Positions 13,226 to 32,516 of a stretch of DNA of 64,000 bases are shown one piece after another. Position 1 is the stretch's first letter; each line of letters starts with the position of its first letter. The notes beneath the pieces were generated by a model. That model saw only the letters and a list, made by a program, of their open reading frames with translations, made no database searches and was not told where the DNA came from. The position numbers and the translations under genes were made by a program. Source of the stretch: an uncultured euryarchaeote (GTDB lineage Archaea > Thermoplasmatota > Poseidoniia > Poseidoniales > Poseidoniaceae); the NCBI GenBank assembly GCA_937899865.1, contig CALBRH010000054.1, positions 14,346 to 78,345 of the forward strand, in the 5' to 3' direction.

Positions 13226-14425
13226 TTATTCTTCAGATTCTCGATTAGCTAGAGGTCCTAATCCTTCGCGCTTCAAAACTACTAGCATAGTCAAAATTGC
13301 TGTAGCACCTACTACTATTGCCGCATAGGGCAGCCAATCCGCATCTCCATCCATAGTTCTTGGTTCAAGTAGCCAAGTAAAAACTAAATCTTCTTGTCCA
13401 ACAAATCTCTTAGACCACTTGAACAAATCTGATGTTTCATGTGCAGCTATAGTTATTGCAGAAGTATGGTTATTCCAAAACTCGCTAATTCCCATGATAT
13501 CATATTCATCAGATTCAATTGTGATGTTTACAGATTTACCATCTGTAATGCTAAGGTGTAAATACTGGTTGGGAAGTTTACTATATCCCTCGCGAGTATG
13601 GCGTTGCTGAGTGATATTTTCAAGTGGTTCACCGTCTGCTGAAATATTGATTATATCCGAACTACCAATATCTAACATCCATGTGATTGGTACATTCCAT
13701 CTCTCTGGCAATAAGTTTGTACATTGTTCTTTAATCAATGATTCAAAATTAAGAATATAATTTTCACCTTGGCTAATAATTGAATGATCAAACTCATAGC
13801 ATTTACTCTTAGCCCAATAGGACCATGATTGACCCCATGTAGTCAACCAAGCATCTGCATCATTAGAGATATAATCTTCAATATCGGAATCATGTCTAAT
13901 CGTAGCCTCATGAACCCTACCTATCCAGTAAAGATTAACCAAGCCACCCTCTTCTACAGCCTCTTTCACATCATCTACTGAACCAATAATTTGCTCGAGA
14001 CTTCCACCCCTGCGACCTAAATTATACCAATCCCAAAGATCCTCGGGGACATCTGAACTATTATGCCAAGCAGTATAATCTAAGCCATTTAAGTCTCCAT
14101 GGACAACAAATCCTTGCTTAGAAATTATTTGATGTTGAGACATTGACAAGTCATTTGGAGTGTAGGTAGAAATAGGATTTTCTCCCCAAATACTCGCTTC
14201 AGTGCGCTGTTCTATATATTGTCGGCATTCTCCGGCAACTGCGCCTGGATCGTTCTCCCAAGACAAGCCAGGGATATCATAACACCCAAATTCATCGCCA
14301 TTGTTCAATCGCTCTTTGACAAGATTAGTGTTTAGCCAACCATCTTCTTCCCACTCAACATCTGCAATGACAGCAGGAGAAAAAACCAATCCTAAAACGA
14401 GAAGAAGAACACAAAATGAATTCAT
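13226..14425 (-). CDS. Secreted, C-terminally membrane-anchored hypothetical protein
   Basis: Signal peptide from ATG 14425 (MNSFCVLLLVLGLVFSPAVIA), Trp-rich extracellular region, C-terminal TM helix followed by KRE. Confidence 0.7.
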   Translation of the reverse strand: MNSFCVLLLVLGLVFSPAVIADVEWEEDGWLNTNLVKERLNNGDEFGCYDIPGLSWENDPGAVAGECRQYIEQRTEASIWGENPISTYTPNDLSMSQHQIISKQGFVVHGDLNGLDYTAWHNSSDVPEDLWDWYNLGRRGGSLEQIIGSVDDVKEAVEEGGLVNLYWIGRVHEATIRHDSDIEDYISNDADAWLTTWGQSWSYWAKSKCYEFDHSIISQGENYILNFESLIKEQCTNLLPERWNVPITWMLDIGSSDIINISADGEPLENITQQRHTREGYSKLPNQYLHLSITDGKSVNITIESDEYDIMGISEFWNNHTSAITIAAHETSDLFKWSKRFVGQEDLVFTWLLEPRTMDGDADWLPYAAIVVGATAILTMLVVLKREGLGPLANRESEE

Positions 14426-25333: not shown

Positions 25334-27829
25334 TTAACCATCTTTTGACTTAAAAATCATCTTACATGAGGGGCATCTAACTGAGCCATCGTATGATTCT
25401 GGGATTCTGAGACTTTGAGAACATTCTGGGCATGAAATCTCAACCTTTCCATCATTAATATCCTCTATTAACTCCTCTTCTTCTTGAACTTCTTCCTCAT
25501 CTATATCTTCTGAACCCACTTCGAAACTATGTGAACAATCAGGACATCTCACAGAACCTTGATAGTTTTCAGGAACTCGAAGTTGTCTGGAACAAACTGG
25601 ACAACTGATTTCAATCTTAACATCGGATAATTGAACAGACTCATTTTTGCGAGTTTTAACCTCTGACTTTGGCTTCTTTGGCTGTCTATTTGAATTCTCA
25701 CGAATTCGAATCATCAAAATAATTAGAGAAGATACTGCTAATCCTCCCAATATTCCTGACCAAGGAATAGTAAAACTATCAGATGATTCCTCTGTGACAA
25801 TTGATGAGAGGAAGATATTATCGATTTGCAGTGTATCACCACCATAATCCCACTTACAATTTAGTCTAACTTCATCTCCTTCTGGCCAAGCAAAACTAAA
25901 GGAAATTGTTTTAGATGACCCTGCAGCAATCGGTGTTGTGCTTGATTCTGCAAGTTTAAATCCATCTCTATCATAAAGAATAATTGTTCCACTTTCACCT
26001 GTAATAGAGCCTTGATTTTCCAACAACACTGTCACACTAGCTGTTTCACCTGCTACAGGACGGTTTGGATTCGATTGTGAATTGAAGCTGATTGTGTATT
26101 GAGGCCTATCTTGAGGTATAGATTTAGTAAATGAGGAGAATGAAGATTCTGATGTCCAATTTATCTCTTGAACTCTAATTATTACATACTCCGCATCTAC
26201 AAAACCAAAATTGAATGTATCGCCTGAAGAACCTGCACTAATTGTCATGTCAACATCATAAACAATCGTATCATCTAAGTTACTACCATATCCCAATTTC
26301 ACATTTATCTCCCGATCTATACCTGATGATAGATTAACCAGCCAATTGGCTGTCACTCCATCATCAATAGTCCATGAAACATCATATAATGACAGTTCAA
26401 AACTTTGCCTTTCCGAGACAGGAAGTAATATCTCACCAGATATATCATCAGCAATTTCACCATCAGTTGAATATAGTGACCAATTAAACTGTTCCGTACC
26501 AGAAACTAATATTGGAACAGTAATCGTAACTTCACCGGCCTCATCTGGCCCTAATGACACCATACTGCCTTGATAATTTCCTGCAGAGGATTCCATTTTT
26601 AGTGAAACATTACCTTGCTTTGTACCGGTATTTCTTACTAACAACGAGAATGTTGATTCATCCCCTACATGCCATGGCCCATCAGTTGTTGAAGGCGTAA
26701 AACTACCCGCATACTCGAATAATGCCGATTCGACAGTAAATGTCTCCGTTGAAGTATTAATCGATGATGGGTCAATTCTTTGACCTGACAAGTAACATAC
26801 TAATTCACCAGGCTTCAAAATAATAGTAAAGTCTACATTTGTATTCGAAGATGATTGAACAATTATTGCTGAATTATAAACAATTTCTTGATCGAATAAA
26901 CAGGTCTTTTCACCTGAAAAATCAACAGTACCATTATTGTAAGTTTGTACTGTAATCTCTAAATTTTCGCCAGAAACTAAATTCTGACCATCATAAACTA
27001 TTGAAGTTTCTAAAATTGGTAGTGGTGGAGGATTAACACTAGCAGTGAAATTTTGAAAGTTATCTGTAATGTAATCATCTATGGTCCCATTTAGGCTTAT
27101 CGATATCGAAAAGAAGCCCTCAAAAACTTGTACTGTTGAATTAAAATATACGATTTTTGTTGACATTCCATTGAGGTCAAATACCGCTGAAGATTGCTGT
27201 TCTGAGGTAATTCCGTTATCTAAAGATAAATTTACGCTTCCAGTCCAAAGATAATCTCCGCTATTGATTATGGGAATTTGAAGCTGAACAAAATCTCCAT
27301 CACTTAAGGAATAATTACCAGTTAATACAGAATTAGAATCAATCGATTCTAAGATAATTGATGATTCTGGTGCTATTGAAATATTTAGCGGATTCAATCT
27401 ATGAATCGTTCTTTGAAAATTCGAAATATCGTTTTGTGATTCAATACCTACATCACCTGTCAAGCCGACTGAAATTATTGTGTAGCCATAATTCAATGAT
27501 GTGAAATTATACGAAATCTCTTGTTGCACTCCCTCGACTAAATCATAAGATATGCTTGAGTTGATTAGTACGGTTCCATCTATGGCTGAGGCTTCAAAAT
27601 AAACCTGCCCAACATAATTTACTCCAAGCCCTTCATCGGTTGAAGAAAGGTTAAATTCTAATTCGAAATATGATTCATCGGTAGTTTGAAAGTCAACCAG
27701 GTTAATAGATTCTGATTCAATAGTAACTCCACCTCCACTTGCAGATGCTATAGGAGCATTAAATAGAAATAAAAAAGTCACAAAAATAGCAAAAAATGTA
27801 ACATAATTCCTGTTACAATCACCCGCCAT
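25334..27829 (-). CDS. CARDB/Ig-like surface protein with TM anchor and two C-terminal zinc ribbons
   Basis: Signal peptide, repeated Ig-like motifs (IINSG, YNNGT, VRNTG, LENQG), TM helix, then two CPxC-x15-CPxC repeats. Confidence 0.75.
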   Translation of the reverse strand: MAGDCNRNYVTFFAIFVTFLFLFNAPIASASGGGVTIESESINLVDFQTTDESYFELEFNLSSTDEGLGVNYVGQVYFEASAIDGTVLINSSISYDLVEGVQQEISYNFTSLNYGYTIISVGLTGDVGIESQNDISNFQRTIHRLNPLNISIAPESSIILESIDSNSVLTGNYSLSDGDFVQLQIPIINSGDYLWTGSVNLSLDNGITSEQQSSAVFDLNGMSTKIVYFNSTVQVFEGFFSISISLNGTIDDYITDNFQNFTASVNPPPLPILETSIVYDGQNLVSGENLEITVQTYNNGTVDFSGEKTCLFDQEIVYNSAIIVQSSSNTNVDFTIILKPGELVCYLSGQRIDPSSINTSTETFTVESALFEYAGSFTPSTTDGPWHVGDESTFSLLVRNTGTKQGNVSLKMESSAGNYQGSMVSLGPDEAGEVTITVPILVSGTEQFNWSLYSTDGEIADDISGEILLPVSERQSFELSLYDVSWTIDDGVTANWLVNLSSGIDREINVKLGYGSNLDDTIVYDVDMTISAGSSGDTFNFGFVDAEYVIIRVQEINWTSESSFSSFTKSIPQDRPQYTISFNSQSNPNRPVAGETASVTVLLENQGSITGESGTIILYDRDGFKLAESSTTPIAAGSSKTISFSFAWPEGDEVRLNCKWDYGGDTLQIDNIFLSSIVTEESSDSFTIPWSGILGGLAVSSLIILMIRIRENSNRQPKKPKSEVKTRKNESVQLSDVKIEISCPVCSRQLRVPENYQGSVRCPDCSHSFEVGSEDIDEEEVQEEEELIEDINDGKVEISCPECSQSLRIPESYDGSVRCPSCKMIFKSKDG

Positions 27830-27918
27830 ATAACTCTCAATTCGTTATGGTTATTGACCTTCACGCAAAACCATCCCCCTGCGCCATGTTTTTCAACATT
27901 GAATTTCACCCGCCGTAT

Positions 27919-28608
27919 ATGACACCCGAGGACTTACTACGTGTTGAGCCAGAAGTCCTTGCAAAATTAATTCTCCACAAACGAGAAAGAATTTCACAAT
28001 CACTACCAAAAATCATCGAATCATTAGGGGAAGAAAAGCACACTGCGGAGAATTTAGCACGAAAATCAAGAGCTGAAAAAGAAGACTTAGAGCCGAAGGT
28101 GAGTAACCTATACTATGAGCGAGCAAAGGTTGTTGCAGAACTCAATGACAAATTTGACACAATTAAATTTGAAAATGATGAAAAAGATAGGTTTGATGAA
28201 ATTTCTGAAAAACTTAAGTCAAAACAAACGAGTGTTGAAAATTTTAATAAAATTCTTTCTGAAATCGTAGAACTTTGTTCAAAATATGGTGGAAAGATTG
28301 AGCAATTAACCTCATATAAATCTTCAATGAAGGCTAATGATGCATTATCCGAAATAATTGATGATTTTGAAAATGCCAAAAACAGATGGAATGAAAATGA
28401 ATCTAACAGACGCAGATTAGAATCAAAATTCACCAAACTATCTACGAATCTAAGAGATTCAAGTACCTCCAAAGATTATTGGCAAGATAAGTTGAATTCA
28501 GATTTTGAAGATTTATTGATTGATGCCAAACGTGTTGCTGAAGGAGGGCTTTCTAGTAGACAGCTGTCCCGTAACAATAAAGGTAAAAATAACTCAAGGA
28601 GGCCTTAA
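27919..28608 (+). CDS. Coiled-coil protein
   Basis: Helical heptad pattern and basic tail. ATG 27919 preferred because it leaves room for the divergent promoter; the stop lies 1 nt before the next gene's TTG. Confidence 0.7.
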   Translation: MTPEDLLRVEPEVLAKLILHKRERISQSLPKIIESLGEEKHTAENLARKSRAEKEDLEPKVSNLYYERAKVVAELNDKFDTIKFENDEKDRFDEISEKLKSKQTSVENFNKILSEIVELCSKYGGKIEQLTSYKSSMKANDALSEIIDDFENAKNRWNENESNRRRLESKFTKLSTNLRDSSTSKDYWQDKLNSDFEDLLIDAKRVAEGGLSSRQLSRNNKGKNNSRRP

Positions 28609-28609
28609 C

Positions 28610-30679
28610 TTGTTAGCAGATTTTGAACAATCAAATATTGATTTAAAATATCTAGTAAATTATGGATATGTGATAAAAGCAATCAAAGGTGATGAACTAT
28701 TTAGCGAGACAAAAATAAGTTCTGATTACATCTCTAAACTTGAAAGCCAATTAACTCTATTTGTCGAATCACAAAAAATTACCAAACCTCTAATTCAGCG
28801 AAGAAATGGTATCATCAAACACCTAAGGAAAATTTTGACAAACAAATTCATCAATTCAAAACTATCCTCTTTTGGCTCCTTCGAGTCAGGGTTAAGCCTA
28901 TCAAACGGTGATATCGATTTATGCTTAGAATTCAATGGAGAGTCCCCAAAGAAGGTTCTGAATAAAATCGCTAGAATGTTAAATCAAGATAGTATGAAAA
29001 ATGTGAAATTAATCACTAATGCCAAAGTCCCAATTGTAAAATTTATTGATAGTCAATCGATGATTCCTGTAGACATATCAGTGAATAACAATTTATCAGT
29101 TTACAATACAGAACTACTTCGAAGATATTGCGATGTCGATCCAAGGGTAAAACCATTCATTCTAGCGATCAAGTATTGGGCTAGAAACAGAGGGATATGT
29201 GAACCAACATCTGGAACATTCTCATCTTATGCATGGACACTAATCGCGATAAATGCGCTGCAAACCATGCAAGAACCAGTAATACCTAACCTATGCACTA
29301 GAGATGGAACTAATGTTGTTGAGATTGATGGTCAAAATTATGATGTCTCTATGCAAGATGTTTCTAATTCTAAATTTATCTCGAAAAATAATGAAACTGT
29401 AGCCGAACTAATAATATCATTTTTCTCGAATTTAGCCACCAATTGGCCATGGGATGATTTTGTTATTTCTGTTCGAGAAGGTGCACTTATTACAAGAAAG
29501 CAGAAAGGTTGGAATCATCAAAAACCCAAAATTAGCAATGCTATACAAGATAAAAAAATAATGCGTCTTGGTAAACACTCCCTTCCTGTAGAAGACCCAT
29601 TTGATGAGATTCATGACTTGAGTATTGTTTTAGATGCTGAAGGAGTGTTTGAAATTAGAGATGAAGTTTTACGTGCATATTCTTTGTTGCATGAATATAA
29701 TAATTGGGAAACGATATGTGAAGTAAAATACCCTGAGTTAATTCCTGAATCACCTCAATTAGACCTTTTTGGCGACCTAAGAAATTTGTCAGAATCTGAA
29801 ATTAAGACGGATTTGGAAAACTTATATTCTCAATTGAATATAGTAGAGAAAAGTGTATCTATTCGTGAAAGTGAGAGAAATGATGCAATAAGAATGTCAA
29901 AGGCTTTGAGAAGAAATGCTGAGTTAGCAAAAGAACAATCTGTACTATCATCTGAATTAAGACCAAGAAGATCGCAAATCGATGAAGCTCAAAGTAAGCG
30001 AGATTCAAGTAACAATAACTACATACCCGTACATTTAATTGAGGATGAGTTACACCGAACATATCACAACTTAACTAAGCAATCTGAAACTGGTATTGAA
30101 TTATCATTTGAAAAAGAGAAGGCCTTATTTTCTTGGTTTTTTGAATTACAAAGCATGCATGAACATGCTAAGATAACAAGAAAACACCATCGAGAATTTT
30201 TGCGATTGGTCAATCAACAAGAAAACGCAATTAATCATATTAAGGACATAAAGCATGAAATCATCGATGTCAAAAATTTAGGGAATTTTAGAGACTTTGA
30301 TGATTTAGCAAAAAGATTGCTTATTGAATTAAATCCTTTGAAGAAAGAACGGCGAAAACTCCGTCGTGAAGTTGGTCGATTAGAAGCATGGCTGAGAAAA
30401 CAAAAACATACACCAAATAAGCAACAACATAAAAATCGAAAATCTCGAACTACGAGAAGAAAAAATGATACGAATGTTAAAGAAATCAAAAATAAAGTTA
30501 TTTCTGGTGATTCCTTTTCCCTGCAAGACCTCGATTTATTACTGAAAAGTGGTGGGCTAAAATCTGTCAATAATCAATCTGATAATAATAAAAAAAGTAA
30601 TAATCAAAAGACCAAGAAAAATAAACCTACTTTGCAACCACATAGAGGGAAAAGAGGCAAATCATCTAAAAATATTTGA
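28610..30679 (+). CDS. Cid1/TUTase-like non-canonical terminal nucleotidyltransferase fused to a coiled-coil domain
   Basis: FGSFESGL...GDIDLC; AKVPIVKF; VDISVNN..SVYNT; IKYWARNRGI; GTFSSYAW; QKGW; VEDPFDEIHDL. Probable TTG start at 28610 after GGAGG; the ORF is open from 28520. Confidence 0.88.
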   Translation: MLADFEQSNIDLKYLVNYGYVIKAIKGDELFSETKISSDYISKLESQLTLFVESQKITKPLIQRRNGIIKHLRKILTNKFINSKLSSFGSFESGLSLSNGDIDLCLEFNGESPKKVLNKIARMLNQDSMKNVKLITNAKVPIVKFIDSQSMIPVDISVNNNLSVYNTELLRRYCDVDPRVKPFILAIKYWARNRGICEPTSGTFSSYAWTLIAINALQTMQEPVIPNLCTRDGTNVVEIDGQNYDVSMQDVSNSKFISKNNETVAELIISFFSNLATNWPWDDFVISVREGALITRKQKGWNHQKPKISNAIQDKKIMRLGKHSLPVEDPFDEIHDLSIVLDAEGVFEIRDEVLRAYSLLHEYNNWETICEVKYPELIPESPQLDLFGDLRNLSESEIKTDLENLYSQLNIVEKSVSIRESERNDAIRMSKALRRNAELAKEQSVLSSELRPRRSQIDEAQSKRDSSNNNYIPVHLIEDELHRTYHNLTKQSETGIELSFEKEKALFSWFFELQSMHEHAKITRKHHREFLRLVNQQENAINHIKDIKHEIIDVKNLGNFRDFDDLAKRLLIELNPLKKERRKLRREVGRLEAWLRKQKHTPNKQQHKNRKSRTTRRKNDTNVKEIKNKVISGDSFSLQDLDLLLKSGGLKSVNNQSDNNKKSNNQKTKKNKPTLQPHRGKRGKSSKNI

Positions 30680-30691
30680 AGAGGTGATTAA

Positions 30692-31168
30692 ATTTCCAAC
30701 CTCCAGTGGATTTTAGGGCCAAAGCCAGAAGAAATGCCAAAAAGCTGGCAATCAAAAATTACTGAATTATTCATATCTGAAACTGGTGAAAGTTATACAG
30801 AAAATACATTTAGAATGCTAAGTATACCCGAATGGTTTGGAAATAAAATCCTCATAGACACTAGTCTCTATCCACTGCCAGAATCACTAATGGGAGTAAT
30901 GTGGTCTAAGCCTTTATTGGAAAATCGGATTCGTATAGTAGCTTTAGTCATCGATAAAAAAGTCCAAAATAATTCTCATGGGACAATGATACTTGATGAT
31001 ATAATTGGACACTCAAAATCTGAAGGTAAAATAATGATTCAGTTAGAAGTTCGTAAATCAAATATTAAGGCTCAAAAATTCTATTCTCGTCACGGCTTGA
31101 AAATAGAAAAGACACTTAAAAATTATTATTCAAACGAAGATGGATTTCTTATGGTAGGAAATCTTTGA
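30692..31168 (+). CDS. GNAT acetyltransferase (RimI/Ard1-like)
   Basis: LEVRKSNIKAQKFYSRHG...NYYSNEDGFLM. First ATG is 30734; a possible ATT start lies at 30692 after GAGGTGA. Confidence 0.85.
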   Translation: MSNLQWILGPKPEEMPKSWQSKITELFISETGESYTENTFRMLSIPEWFGNKILIDTSLYPLPESLMGVMWSKPLLENRIRIVALVIDKKVQNNSHGTMILDDIIGHSKSEGKIMIQLEVRKSNIKAQKFYSRHGLKIEKTLKNYYSNEDGFLMVGNL

Positions 31169-31208: not shown

Positions 31209-31541
31209 ATGGAAGAGTTTGTAGTCTCCGACTTAATTGATTCAAGTTACATCCTCAGTGCTGCAATACTTGATGATCAAGGATTCGTTATCTCTTCAAA
31301 GCCTAATGATAGTAAAACCAAAGAGCAACTATCGAAGTTTGCTGAAATACTCTACTCATCTGAAGATTATGACCAGACATCAATAATTACTGAAGAACGA
31401 ATTATAATTATTCACAAATTGGTAAAAGATTTCACATTAGTCGTAGGATGTGAGACAAATTCTAATTTAGGATTGTTAAGGAATGAAATTTCTAGCGCAG
31501 TATCTCGATTAAACACTTACTTCGATTCAACATCTCGTTAA
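31209..31541 (+). CDS. Roadblock/LC7-like protein
   Basis: SAAILDDQGFVISS ... LVVGCETNSNLGLLRNEI pattern typical of the roadblock fold. Confidence 0.65.
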   Translation: MEEFVVSDLIDSSYILSAAILDDQGFVISSKPNDSKTKEQLSKFAEILYSSEDYDQTSIITEERIIIIHKLVKDFTLVVGCETNSNLGLLRNEISSAVSRLNTYFDSTSR

Positions 31542-31646
31542 TCGATGGATTCATCCAAACAATTGATGATATCAAGCATTAAATGGGGGATACAGTTCGC
31601 CATAACAGTGTAAGGTGGGAATCTTGCACGCAAGGTGAGTATTGTA

Positions 31647-32516
31647 ATGAGCGAAATTAATCAAGTTCTTGAGCAAAAAAAGAATATGGTAAATGAAAAA
31701 GCAACTAAATTCCGTGAGACACGAGACGAGTGGAACAAGAAATCCAAAACTCATTCTGCAGCAAGAAATGAATTAAATGCTGAAGTCAAAGAACTGATCG
31801 TTCAAGTTAGAGAGCAGAGAGAAATTAGAGAACAAATGAATGAAATGGTTCGTGAAAAGAAAGTTATTCGTCAAGAAGCAAATAAGAAAGTCAAAGAAAT
31901 TAAATCTCGTATGGATTCATCAAGAGGCCCTGTAGAGCAAGATAATTCACGCGGTAAACGTGGCCAGAGACCTATTACTTCTCATCAACTCAGAAAAGAA
32001 CTTGAAAGATTGGAAAGAGAATTCGAACAAGGTAGACACACCGGTAAGAATGAAAAGAAAGTTATGAAAAGAATGAAGGAAATAAGTTCCAAACTAAAAC
32101 AAATGACTTCTATTGATGATAGTAATGAAGACATGAAAGGTCTTCGAGAAGAATTAAAAATTGCTCTTGCAGAACAAGAGGATGCTCATGAAGAAGTACA
32201 AACTGCTGCAAATGCTGCTCAAGAAGCACATGAATTAATGCTACAGTGGAACAAAGAAGTTGACAAGCAACGAGAAAAGGCGGAATCATGCCATAGAGAG
32301 TTACGCAAATCCAAGAAAGAAGCTGACAAAGCACATCACTTGTACATTGTATCTTTACGCTGCTTGCACTCAATACAAGACATGTCCGCTGCAATGTCTG
32401 GTAATGATGTAGAAGAAGGCGGTTCTAAGGCAAGAGTTGAGGTACAAGATTTGATGACTAAATTGATGTCTGGAGATACTCTTTCTACTGAAGAATTGAT
32501 GCAATTGCAAAAATAG
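31647..32516 (+). CDS. Archaeal coiled-coil protein (COG1340-like)
   Basis: RDEWN..ARNELN; LERLEREFEQGRHTGKNEKKVMKRMKE; QEDAHEEV..AQEAHE..ADKAH; terminal KLMSGDTLSTEELMQLQK. Confidence 0.8.
   Translation: MSEINQVLEQKKNMVNEKATKFRETRDEWNKKSKTHSAARNELNAEVKELIVQVREQREIREQMNEMVREKKVIRQEANKKVKEIKSRMDSSRGPVEQDNSRGKRGQRPITSHQLRKELERLEREFEQGRHTGKNEKKVMKRMKEISSKLKQMTSIDDSNEDMKGLREELKIALAEQEDAHEEVQTAANAAQEAHELMLQWNKEVDKQREKAESCHRELRKSKKEADKAHHLYIVSLRCLHSIQDMSAAMSGNDVEEGGSKARVEVQDLMTKLMSGDTLSTEELMQLQK

Follow-up and report, generated by a model that had tools for sequence, protein, structure and literature searches.

The closest described relatives of the enzyme reported here are Arabidopsis UTP:RNA uridylyltransferase 1 (URT1; PDB 7xs4, 6l3f), the S. 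pombe poly(U) polymerase Cid1, and human TUT4 and TUT7 (ZCCHC11 and ZCCHC6). URT1 has a single catalytic module and a long disordered N-terminal region, Cid1 is a stand-alone, two-lobed single module of ~400 aa, and TUT4 and TUT7 carry a second, inactive nucleotidyltransferase (NTase) module together with CCHC zinc knuckles. In the accessible parts of PMC6240794 and of the 2026 review PMC13702519, Cid1-type RNA 3' uridylation is treated as a eukaryotic process. The nucleotide addition described at archaeal RNA 3' ends, in the accessible parts of PMC4227792 and PMC7667871, is that by the exosome and by class I CCA-adding enzymes. We analyzed 64,000 nt of DNA from an uncultured archaeon (positions 14,346 to 78,345 of contig CALBRH010000054.1, our contig C54; hereafter the window), whose source genome comprises 2.01 Mb in 65 contigs with a completeness of 91% and a contamination of 0.18%. 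The family of the window, labelled Poseidoniaceae or MGIIa, is designated f1, its sister family f3, and the genera are coded g1 to g22. The window contains a gene for a putatively active, template-independent RNA 3'-terminal ribonucleotidyltransferase of the Cid1/URT1/TUT7 branch of the eukaryotic TENT family (non-canonical poly(A)/poly(U) polymerases), and we consider it likely that this is a eukaryotic module that was captured once, in or at the base of f1, and fused to a native coiled-coil protein.

In the open reading frame (ORF) listing of the window, the gene occupies a single open frame running from stop to stop at 28520..30679 (+). The gene itself is taken as 28610..30679 (+, stop codon included), which codes for 689 aa, because the layout of upstream stop, AGGAGG and TTG agrees with the N-termini of the orthologues. 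The likely start is the TTG at 28610, separated by a 1-nt gap from the TAA of the upstream ORF (28606-28608), and an AGGAGG read from the sequence as a Shine-Dalgarno-like site (28597..28602, +) lies within the 3' end of that ORF, 7 nt before the TTG. The TTG-encoded N-terminus is shared by close orthologues, while more distant orthologues start with an ATG a few residues off; full-length orthologues are 38-92% identical. The terminal nucleotidyltransferase module corresponds to aa 1-376 (28610..29737, +) and the C-terminal domain to aa 377-689 (29738..30676, +). An earlier reading of the same DNA without database searches (the original prediction) had placed a GGAGG ribosome-binding site here and a start 1 nt past the upstream stop, as we also find. 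Its span for the enzyme, 28610-29700, covers the nucleotidyltransferase part (aa 1-363 of 689), and the gene runs on to 30679.

The module belongs to the Cid1/URT1/TUT7 family by every approach used. In Pfam, it matches MTPAP-like_central (PF22600; aa 44-174, E 8e-30, 104.2 bits against a curated cut-off of 27) and PAP_assoc (PF03828; aa 264-335, E 1e-9, 38.9 bits against a curated cut-off of 22.6), and the NTP_transf_2 match also exceeds its curated cut-off. A phmmer search of the PDB ranks TUT7 first (5.2e-47), followed by URT1 (6.3e-47), TUT4 (3.9e-45), CutA (5.4e-39) and Cid1 (1.5e-34), with GLD2 (8.3e-27), TUT1 (1e-18), mtPAP (4e-16), Trf4 (3e-12), and then the trypanosome TUTases (terminal uridylyltransferases) and Tailor further down. 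Chance similarity is by far too weak an explanation for matches of this strength. The AlphaFold2 model of aa 1-376 (pLDDT 88, pTM 0.90) has URT1 7xs4 as its top fold match (TM 0.92, rmsd 2.3 Å), and TUT7, Cid1 and CutA come next; the target-normalised TM is 0.92 for URT1, 0.89 for the catalytic module of TUT7 and 0.88 for Cid1. No CCA-adding enzyme is found among the 38 PDB sequence matches, and no CCA-adding enzyme, MNT or CD-NTase among the 28 fold-match rows listed, which reach rank 49 and omit additional chains of PDB entries already given. These results establish that N-terminal residues ~40-376 are a true Cid1/URT1/TUT7-type terminal nucleotidyltransferase. The original prediction had named CCA-adding enzymes, MNT toxins and CD-NTases as placements to be checked; because the Pfam, PDB and fold results, like the phylogeny described below, give Cid1/URT1/TUT7, the protein is placed with none of them.

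The defence-related members of that list deserve separate mention. CD-NTases, MNT toxins and OAS-like enzymes share the Pol-beta NTase fold with the window protein, and PADLOC gives one candidate, a weak match of aa 68-140 in the NTase core to PDC-S09 (E 3.3e-5, 22 bits), so that an enzyme of defence or signalling acting on substrates other than RNA tails has to be weighed. We regard such a function as extremely improbable in view of the fold matches listed, of the neighbouring genes (a GNAT, coiled-coil proteins and a PurP-like gene, without any HEPN protein or effector, in a housekeeping-like cluster conserved across the order), and of the viral contigs, in which no relative was found.

Compared to the known enzymes, the module most resembles URT1, which heads both its full-length sequence matches (aa 62-365, E 6e-47) and its fold matches, and with which it shares the single catalytic module, the GS/DxD/D residues and the DPF..xxH motif. 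The two differ in that only the archaeal protein has a coiled-coil C-terminal domain and that URT1 has a loop before DPF that is ~10 residues shorter; the two are ~29% identical in the structural alignment. Cid1 shows the same two-lobed single-module architecture, yet its match is weaker than those of URT1 and TUT7, and the archaeal enzyme carries a 313-aa helical domain with a basic tail that the stand-alone Cid1 does not have. TUT7 and TUT4 are among the top PDB matches of the catalytic module, with alignments to TUT7 ending at aa 304 of the archaeal protein. The label Cid1/TUT4/7-type in the original prediction therefore holds at the level of the family and not for the tandem architecture: the archaeal protein has one NTase module only, and no zinc-knuckle family is matched in Pfam at E <= 0.01. 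The archaeal systems are more distant. The exosome makes A-rich tails via reverse phosphorolysis, by proteins unrelated to the window enzyme, and the archaeal CCA-adding enzymes are absent from its listed PDB and fold matches. The loop at aa 302-325 before DPF was also considered as a clade-specific insert, and this was dropped, as the Cid1 loop is nearly equally long.

The catalytic and nucleotide-binding residues are intact. The eight motifs listed in the original prediction, FGSFESGLSLSNGDIDLC, AKVPIVKF, VDISVNN.LSVYNTELL, DPRVKPFILAIKYWARNRGI, GTFSSYAW, PVIPNL, QKGW and VEDPFDEIHDL, are all present in that order in the translation of 28520-30676, and tool alignments to Cid1 and URT1 bear out the Cid1 motif correspondences of that prediction, the His included. 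In an alignment of 7 archaeal and 8 eukaryotic proteins, G89, S90, D101, D103, D155, N166, K188, S205 and Y207 are invariant, with H335 nearly invariant as well. G89-S90 and D101-x-D103 (FGS...GDIDLC) are encoded at 28874..28918 (+), and the third catalytic Asp, D155 (PVDIS), at 29072..29074 (+), corresponding by motif position to Cid1 D160 (residue names as in the accessible part of PMC13702519). The nucleotide-recognition motif D329-P-F-D-E-I-H335 is encoded at 29594..29614 (+). In the HMMER alignment, VEDPFDEIHDL pairs with IEDPFETSHDL of URT1 and IEDPFEISHNV of Cid1, and the D-P-F-acidic-x-x-H spacing equals that of Cid1 D330/F332/E333/H336; the whole Asp triad and the His equivalent to Cid1 H336 are thus in the window protein, as predicted. 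Among 37 orthologous loci, the triad D101/D103/D155 is retained in 34, with all three exceptions in genus g22, and H335 in 32, with three exceptions in g22, one in g17 and one in g18. According to the part of PMC13702519 available to us, Cid1 H336 bonds uracil O4 and the surrounding stretch is the nucleotide-recognition motif. Because the catalytic residues and the His of this motif are conserved, the window enzyme has, as far as can be read from its sequence, every feature expected of an active, U-preferring enzyme.

The C-terminal 313 aa correspond to a coiled-coil protein that is native to the archaea and whose unfused form is ancestral. In the f3 genomes examined (n=4), a protein of 336-394 aa occupies the slot of the fusion gene and aligns over its entire length to aa 377-689. 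It shares the DLFxDL, FSWFFELQxMH, RRExGRLEAW and SGGxLSLxDLxxLL motifs and the basic tail, and has a basic N-terminal extension in place of the NTase module. The stand-alone form also occupies this slot in f1 genera g12, g16 and g19, with no NTase remnant, and stand-alone homologues overall are 283-394 aa long. The original prediction's fusion to an archaeal-type domain can thus be specified as a fusion to the orthologue of the sister family's stand-alone protein. A quick tree of the C-terminal domain puts the f3 proteins on one side of a branch with support 96*. The stand-alone forms of f1 are interspersed with fused ones, and one g12 stand-alone form groups with g12 fused forms (96*). The NTase module, in turn, forms a single clade, and the simplest history is therefore that the module was gained once near the base of f1 and then cleanly lost several times.

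In the model of the C-terminal domain (pLDDT 79.8), long helices run antiparallel, the small end module, which contains SGDSFSLQDLDLLLKSGG, is helical, and the basic tail is disordered. A Foldseek search of this domain against the PDB returned generic coiled coils only, none at E <= 0.001, and neither the fusion protein nor the stand-alone form is covered by an NCBIfam model. Protein-atlas matches to the domain are archaeal hypothetical-protein clusters only; in one of them DUF7121 is annotated on 21% of the members, which is a lead only. The upstream gene, which encodes a 253-aa coiled-coil protein (27847..28608, +), abuts the fusion gene or its stand-alone counterpart, or overlaps it by a few bases, in every locus examined across the order. 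Complex prediction for the C-terminal domain with this upstream protein gave a score of 0.65, compared to 0.00 for the best of 3 controls. In the benchmark, 58/80 solved complexes and 2/110 mismatched pairs reached this score, counts that hold only roughly here because custom alignments went into the complex prediction. The runs shared at least 78% of their contacts, and the pLDDT of the partner was at least 77. The predicted interface is formed by aa 467-519 (IPVH..FSWFFELQSMHEH; 30008..30166, +), the most conserved stretch of the domain. The model supports, without demonstrating it, a binding of the C-terminal domain to the upstream protein.

The NTase module was matched in 137/400 sampled genomes of the order, the window's own genome counted, namely in 136/199 genomes of f1, 0/2 of f2 and 0/198 of f3. 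Within f1 it occurs in most or all genomes of g1 (55/60), g13 (26/28), g14 (24/24), g15 (11/12), g17 (3/3), g18 (2/2) and g22 (7/7). At the level of the phylum, the PAP_assoc profile was found in 43/401 sampled genomes, all of them f1 (42/57 in the f1 sample), and in 0/343 genomes of 49 other families and 0/14 control genomes. A motif scan of one genome per species in 185,579 species returned 94 relatives. The 80 relatives listed bear Poseidoniales-type labels ('Candidatus Poseidoniaceae archaeon', 'MGIIa', 'Poseidoniales archaeon') or generic archaeal ones, except for one Salinimicrobium bin. As to the labels themselves, that bin, 'Salinimicrobium sp.', has the coordinates of an f1 genome of genus g15; two of the listed relatives are labelled Thalassarchaeaceae, one of which (L112) has the coordinates of an f1 genome of genus g17, so that submitter labels and grouping codes disagree in L104, L112 and L122.

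The source genome is a 65-contig bin and the nearest non-archaeal relatives of the module are eukaryotic, as would be the case for a eukaryotic contaminant or a chimeric assembly. The chance of this is negligible in our estimate. The 136 f1 genomes have the same fusion with the same neighbours, and so does a closed chromosome of 2,064,136 bp in one contig (the 'MG-II chromosome', CM001443.1). Contigs from an independent study cover 28275-29135 and 29521-29871 with zero differences, bridging the junction to the upstream gene as well as that between the module and the C-terminal domain. The GC content of the fusion gene is similar to that of the neighbouring genes, the upstream gene is directly joined to it as described above, and each half of the gene has a dN/dS of 0.10 when compared with the nearest relative, which indicates purifying selection. 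Because of the family-wide presence, the closed chromosome, the junction-spanning contigs and this dN/dS, contamination and chimerism can be ruled out to the extent that data of this kind permit, and the gene is native to the archaeal family and vertically inherited within it. The original prediction had called the gene native and asked about its presence in related genomes: the first point stands, and for the second, the gene is present across its own family, a range that is confined to this single family, with losses, rather than spanning the order.

With respect to its origin, the protein gave 8179 matches at E <= 0.001 among 1.84 billion representative proteins. Archaeal fusion proteins, some of them fragmentary, take the top 13 places, and the named matches that come next are eukaryotic without exception (a mollusc CCHC protein, spider TUT4, Fabomonas, Filamoeba, a chytrid, coconut URT1 and Prasinoderma). 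In a FastTree phylogeny of 161 rows, the 26 archaeal rows form one clade (100). A second tree (IQ-TREE, LG+C20 PMSF) was computed from 75 rows hand-picked from the 161, with the long-branched three g22 rows and 83 others omitted and the root assumed at GLD2; its 16 archaeal rows are again united in one clade (100/100), which with respect to GLD2 lies within the TUTase group. In this rooted tree a fungal clade (Spizellomyces, Ambispora, Gongronella) diverges first (100/99), and the archaeal clade falls in the remaining group (88/74). The nested position in the tree and the narrow archaeal range favour a single transfer from a eukaryote to an archaeon plus fusion, followed by losses and by one catalytically dead lineage. 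A viral vector was also considered and dropped, as no relative was found in the IMG/VR contigs with either of two motif patterns.

Several observations weigh against an active, U-adding enzyme captured once from a eukaryote. On the side of origin, the sister clade of the archaeal proteins (Galdieria partita, a marine protist transcript and metagenome proteins) is weakly supported (86/77), and the direction of transfer rests on the distribution and on GLD2 as the assumed outgroup. In addition, archaeal phyla other than that of the window were covered via the motif scan (80/94 relatives listed) and the best 150 protein-database matches. The weak sister relation, the long stem of the archaeal clade and the assumed rooting are also what one could cite for an ancestral archaeal clade, that is, for an archaeal lineage as the source of the eukaryotic TENT family. 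We consider this very improbable: the module occurs in one family alone, with 0/198 genomes in the sister family and none in the rest of the phylum, the unfused C-terminal protein is the form found across the rest of the order, the archaeal protein is much nearer to URT1 and TUT7 than to Trf4, mtPAP or TUT1, and the fungal clade branches below the archaeal one.

On the side of function, the module is dispensable, being found in only 8/52 genomes of g12 and in none of g16 (0/3), g19 (0/5), g20 (0/2) and g21 (0/1). The g22 loci (n=3) have D101, D103, D155 and H335 all replaced; their fusion frames are 654-673 aa long (L034:2645-4648, L035:2546-4543 and L036), the NTase domain escapes a Pfam search in them, and they form a long branch. 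The fusion is retained in this genus, with matches in 7/7 genomes, and the g22 protein looks like a pseudo-enzyme. Contigs from RNA libraries (X18 and X19, one sample) match only 29145-29294 and 29731-29965 and cannot prove transcription, and the gene parts they leave uncovered are uninformative. LSM-family proteins are the usual readers of U tails, and no LSM-family protein was found in the 91%-complete source genome. Finally, with the Asp triad intact, the position of H335 is occupied by Ile in the single g17 locus examined (L140) and by Arg in the single g18 locus examined (L141). In both loci the changed position is equivalent to 29612-29614 of the window.

Because H335 is replaced in these two loci, nucleotide choice may differ within the archaeal clade, and they bear on whether the enzyme adds A, C or mixed tails; it would then be a non-canonical poly(A) polymerase, or resemble CutA, and its products would complement the A-rich tails made by the exosome. 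The C/U-adding CutA and GLD2 are among the PDB matches, the genome encodes the RNase PH subunits of the exosome, and H336 changes in Cid1 shift it toward ATP or broaden its substrates, as stated in the accessible part of PMC13702519. We think such an activity unlikely, considering that H335 is kept in 32/37 loci alongside N166, T/S167, S205 and Y207, and that the top sequence and fold matches (URT1, TUT7 and Cid1) are U-specific.

The favoured account of a Cid1-type enzyme acquired from a eukaryote can be put as a sequence of steps. An ancestor within or at the base of Poseidoniaceae would have captured the eukaryotic module once, and this module would have been fused in frame at the N-terminus of the coiled-coil protein of an order-wide gene cluster. 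The enzyme would then extend RNA 3' ends by short tails without a template. Given that most genera retain the His with which Cid1 reads uracil, these would most likely be U tails wherever H335 is present, and possibly tails of other nucleotides where it is replaced by Ile or Arg, as in the g17 and g18 loci examined. The C-terminal domain may contribute oligomerisation, a partner and a basic RNA-binding tail, and together with this tail and the predicted upstream partner it may anchor the enzyme on a native complex and on RNA. The module is accessory: several genera lost it again, and in one genus it is catalytically dead. RNA uridylation by the window enzyme is thus a putative activity.

In addition to the exosome subunits, the source genome encodes a 785-aa RNB exoribonuclease outside the window (L045:1054-3408, minus strand, in G000:C62). 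Its nearest match is bacterial RNase R (2.5e-51), with Dis3L2 scoring lower (2e-36), and within the order it is nearly limited to f1 (139/199 genomes, compared to 2/198 in f3). By genus, its occurrence matches that of the TUTase only partly, with RNB in 43/52 genomes of g12, 5/28 of g13, 0/3 of g17 and 0/7 of g22. A eukaryote-like nuclease partner was therefore not adopted, the RNB protein being nearer to RNase R than to Dis3L2 and its genus distribution fitting partly, and an obligate pairing is not claimed. It is conceivable, if doubtful, that MGIIa archaea run a eukaryote-like surveillance in which the TUTase, bound in a native coiled-coil complex, would oligo-uridylate the 3' ends of selected RNAs, and the tails would recruit an exoribonuclease of 3'-5' direction, for instance the RNB enzyme related to RNase R. 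If true, RNA decay dependent on uridylation would for the first time be known outside eukaryotes, and this in an archaeal group that is among the most abundant of the surface ocean.

Relatives of the protein are named 'nucleotidyltransferase domain-containing protein', 'DNA polymerase sigma' or 'hypothetical protein' in the databases, so the domain is recognised automatically. Full-text literature searches, to which supplements (e.g., MGII gene tables) and subscription journals were beyond scope, returned no description of an archaeal Cid1-type enzyme. None is mentioned in the accessible parts of PMC5689010, PMC6240794, PMC6461757, PMC9723583, PMC6741140, PMC4122925 and bioRxiv 10.64898/2026.10.14.759114. 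The enzyme family is thus known; what appears new is its occurrence in this domain of life, the architecture of the fusion and the pattern in which the module was lost and inactivated. A complete TUTase-type enzyme under selection, apparently active to judge from its residues, is stably encoded in the chromosome of an archaeal family that is abundant worldwide, and archaea of this family may mark RNAs with U tails. The system offers a natural experiment on the role of a TUTase in a cell without a nucleus, miRNAs or Lsm1-7, with module-free genomes of the sister family and of the same genera as built-in controls. It also provides a clear example of a gene that passed from a eukaryote to an archaeon and subsequently underwent domain fusion, loss and conversion to a pseudo-enzyme, and the protein could serve as a compact new enzyme for labelling RNA 3' ends.

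Throughout the order, the fusion gene lies in a conserved succession of genes: a CARDB/zinc-ribbon membrane protein on the opposite strand, the 253-aa coiled-coil protein, the fusion gene, a RimI-like GNAT (30734..31168, +), a ~110-aa protein (31209..31541, +; 110 aa in the window), a DUF7121 coiled-coil protein (31635..32516, +) and a PurP-like gene. The first of these, at 25334..27829 (-), is a divergently oriented 831-aa protein with a signal-like N-terminus, CARDB, a transmembrane stretch and two C-terminal zinc ribbons. Kinship of the C-terminal domain with the two neighbouring coiled-coil proteins was considered and rejected. A BLASTP comparison with them gave nothing significant, hhalign against DUF7121 orthologues gave just a 30-column C-terminal motif with a probability of 44%, and hhalign against the upstream family gave nothing (probability 17%). 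A similar terminal motif (SG[DG]xxSxx[DE]Lxx[LM]L or EGGLSS) precedes a basic or acidic tail in the C-terminal domain (30380-30460) and in the DUF7121 protein (32440-32513), and the upstream protein (28500-28560) shares it more loosely. The 110-aa neighbour has Roadblock/LC7 matches below the Pfam cut-off, with E 0.07 here and 0.01 in the orthologue of the closed genome.

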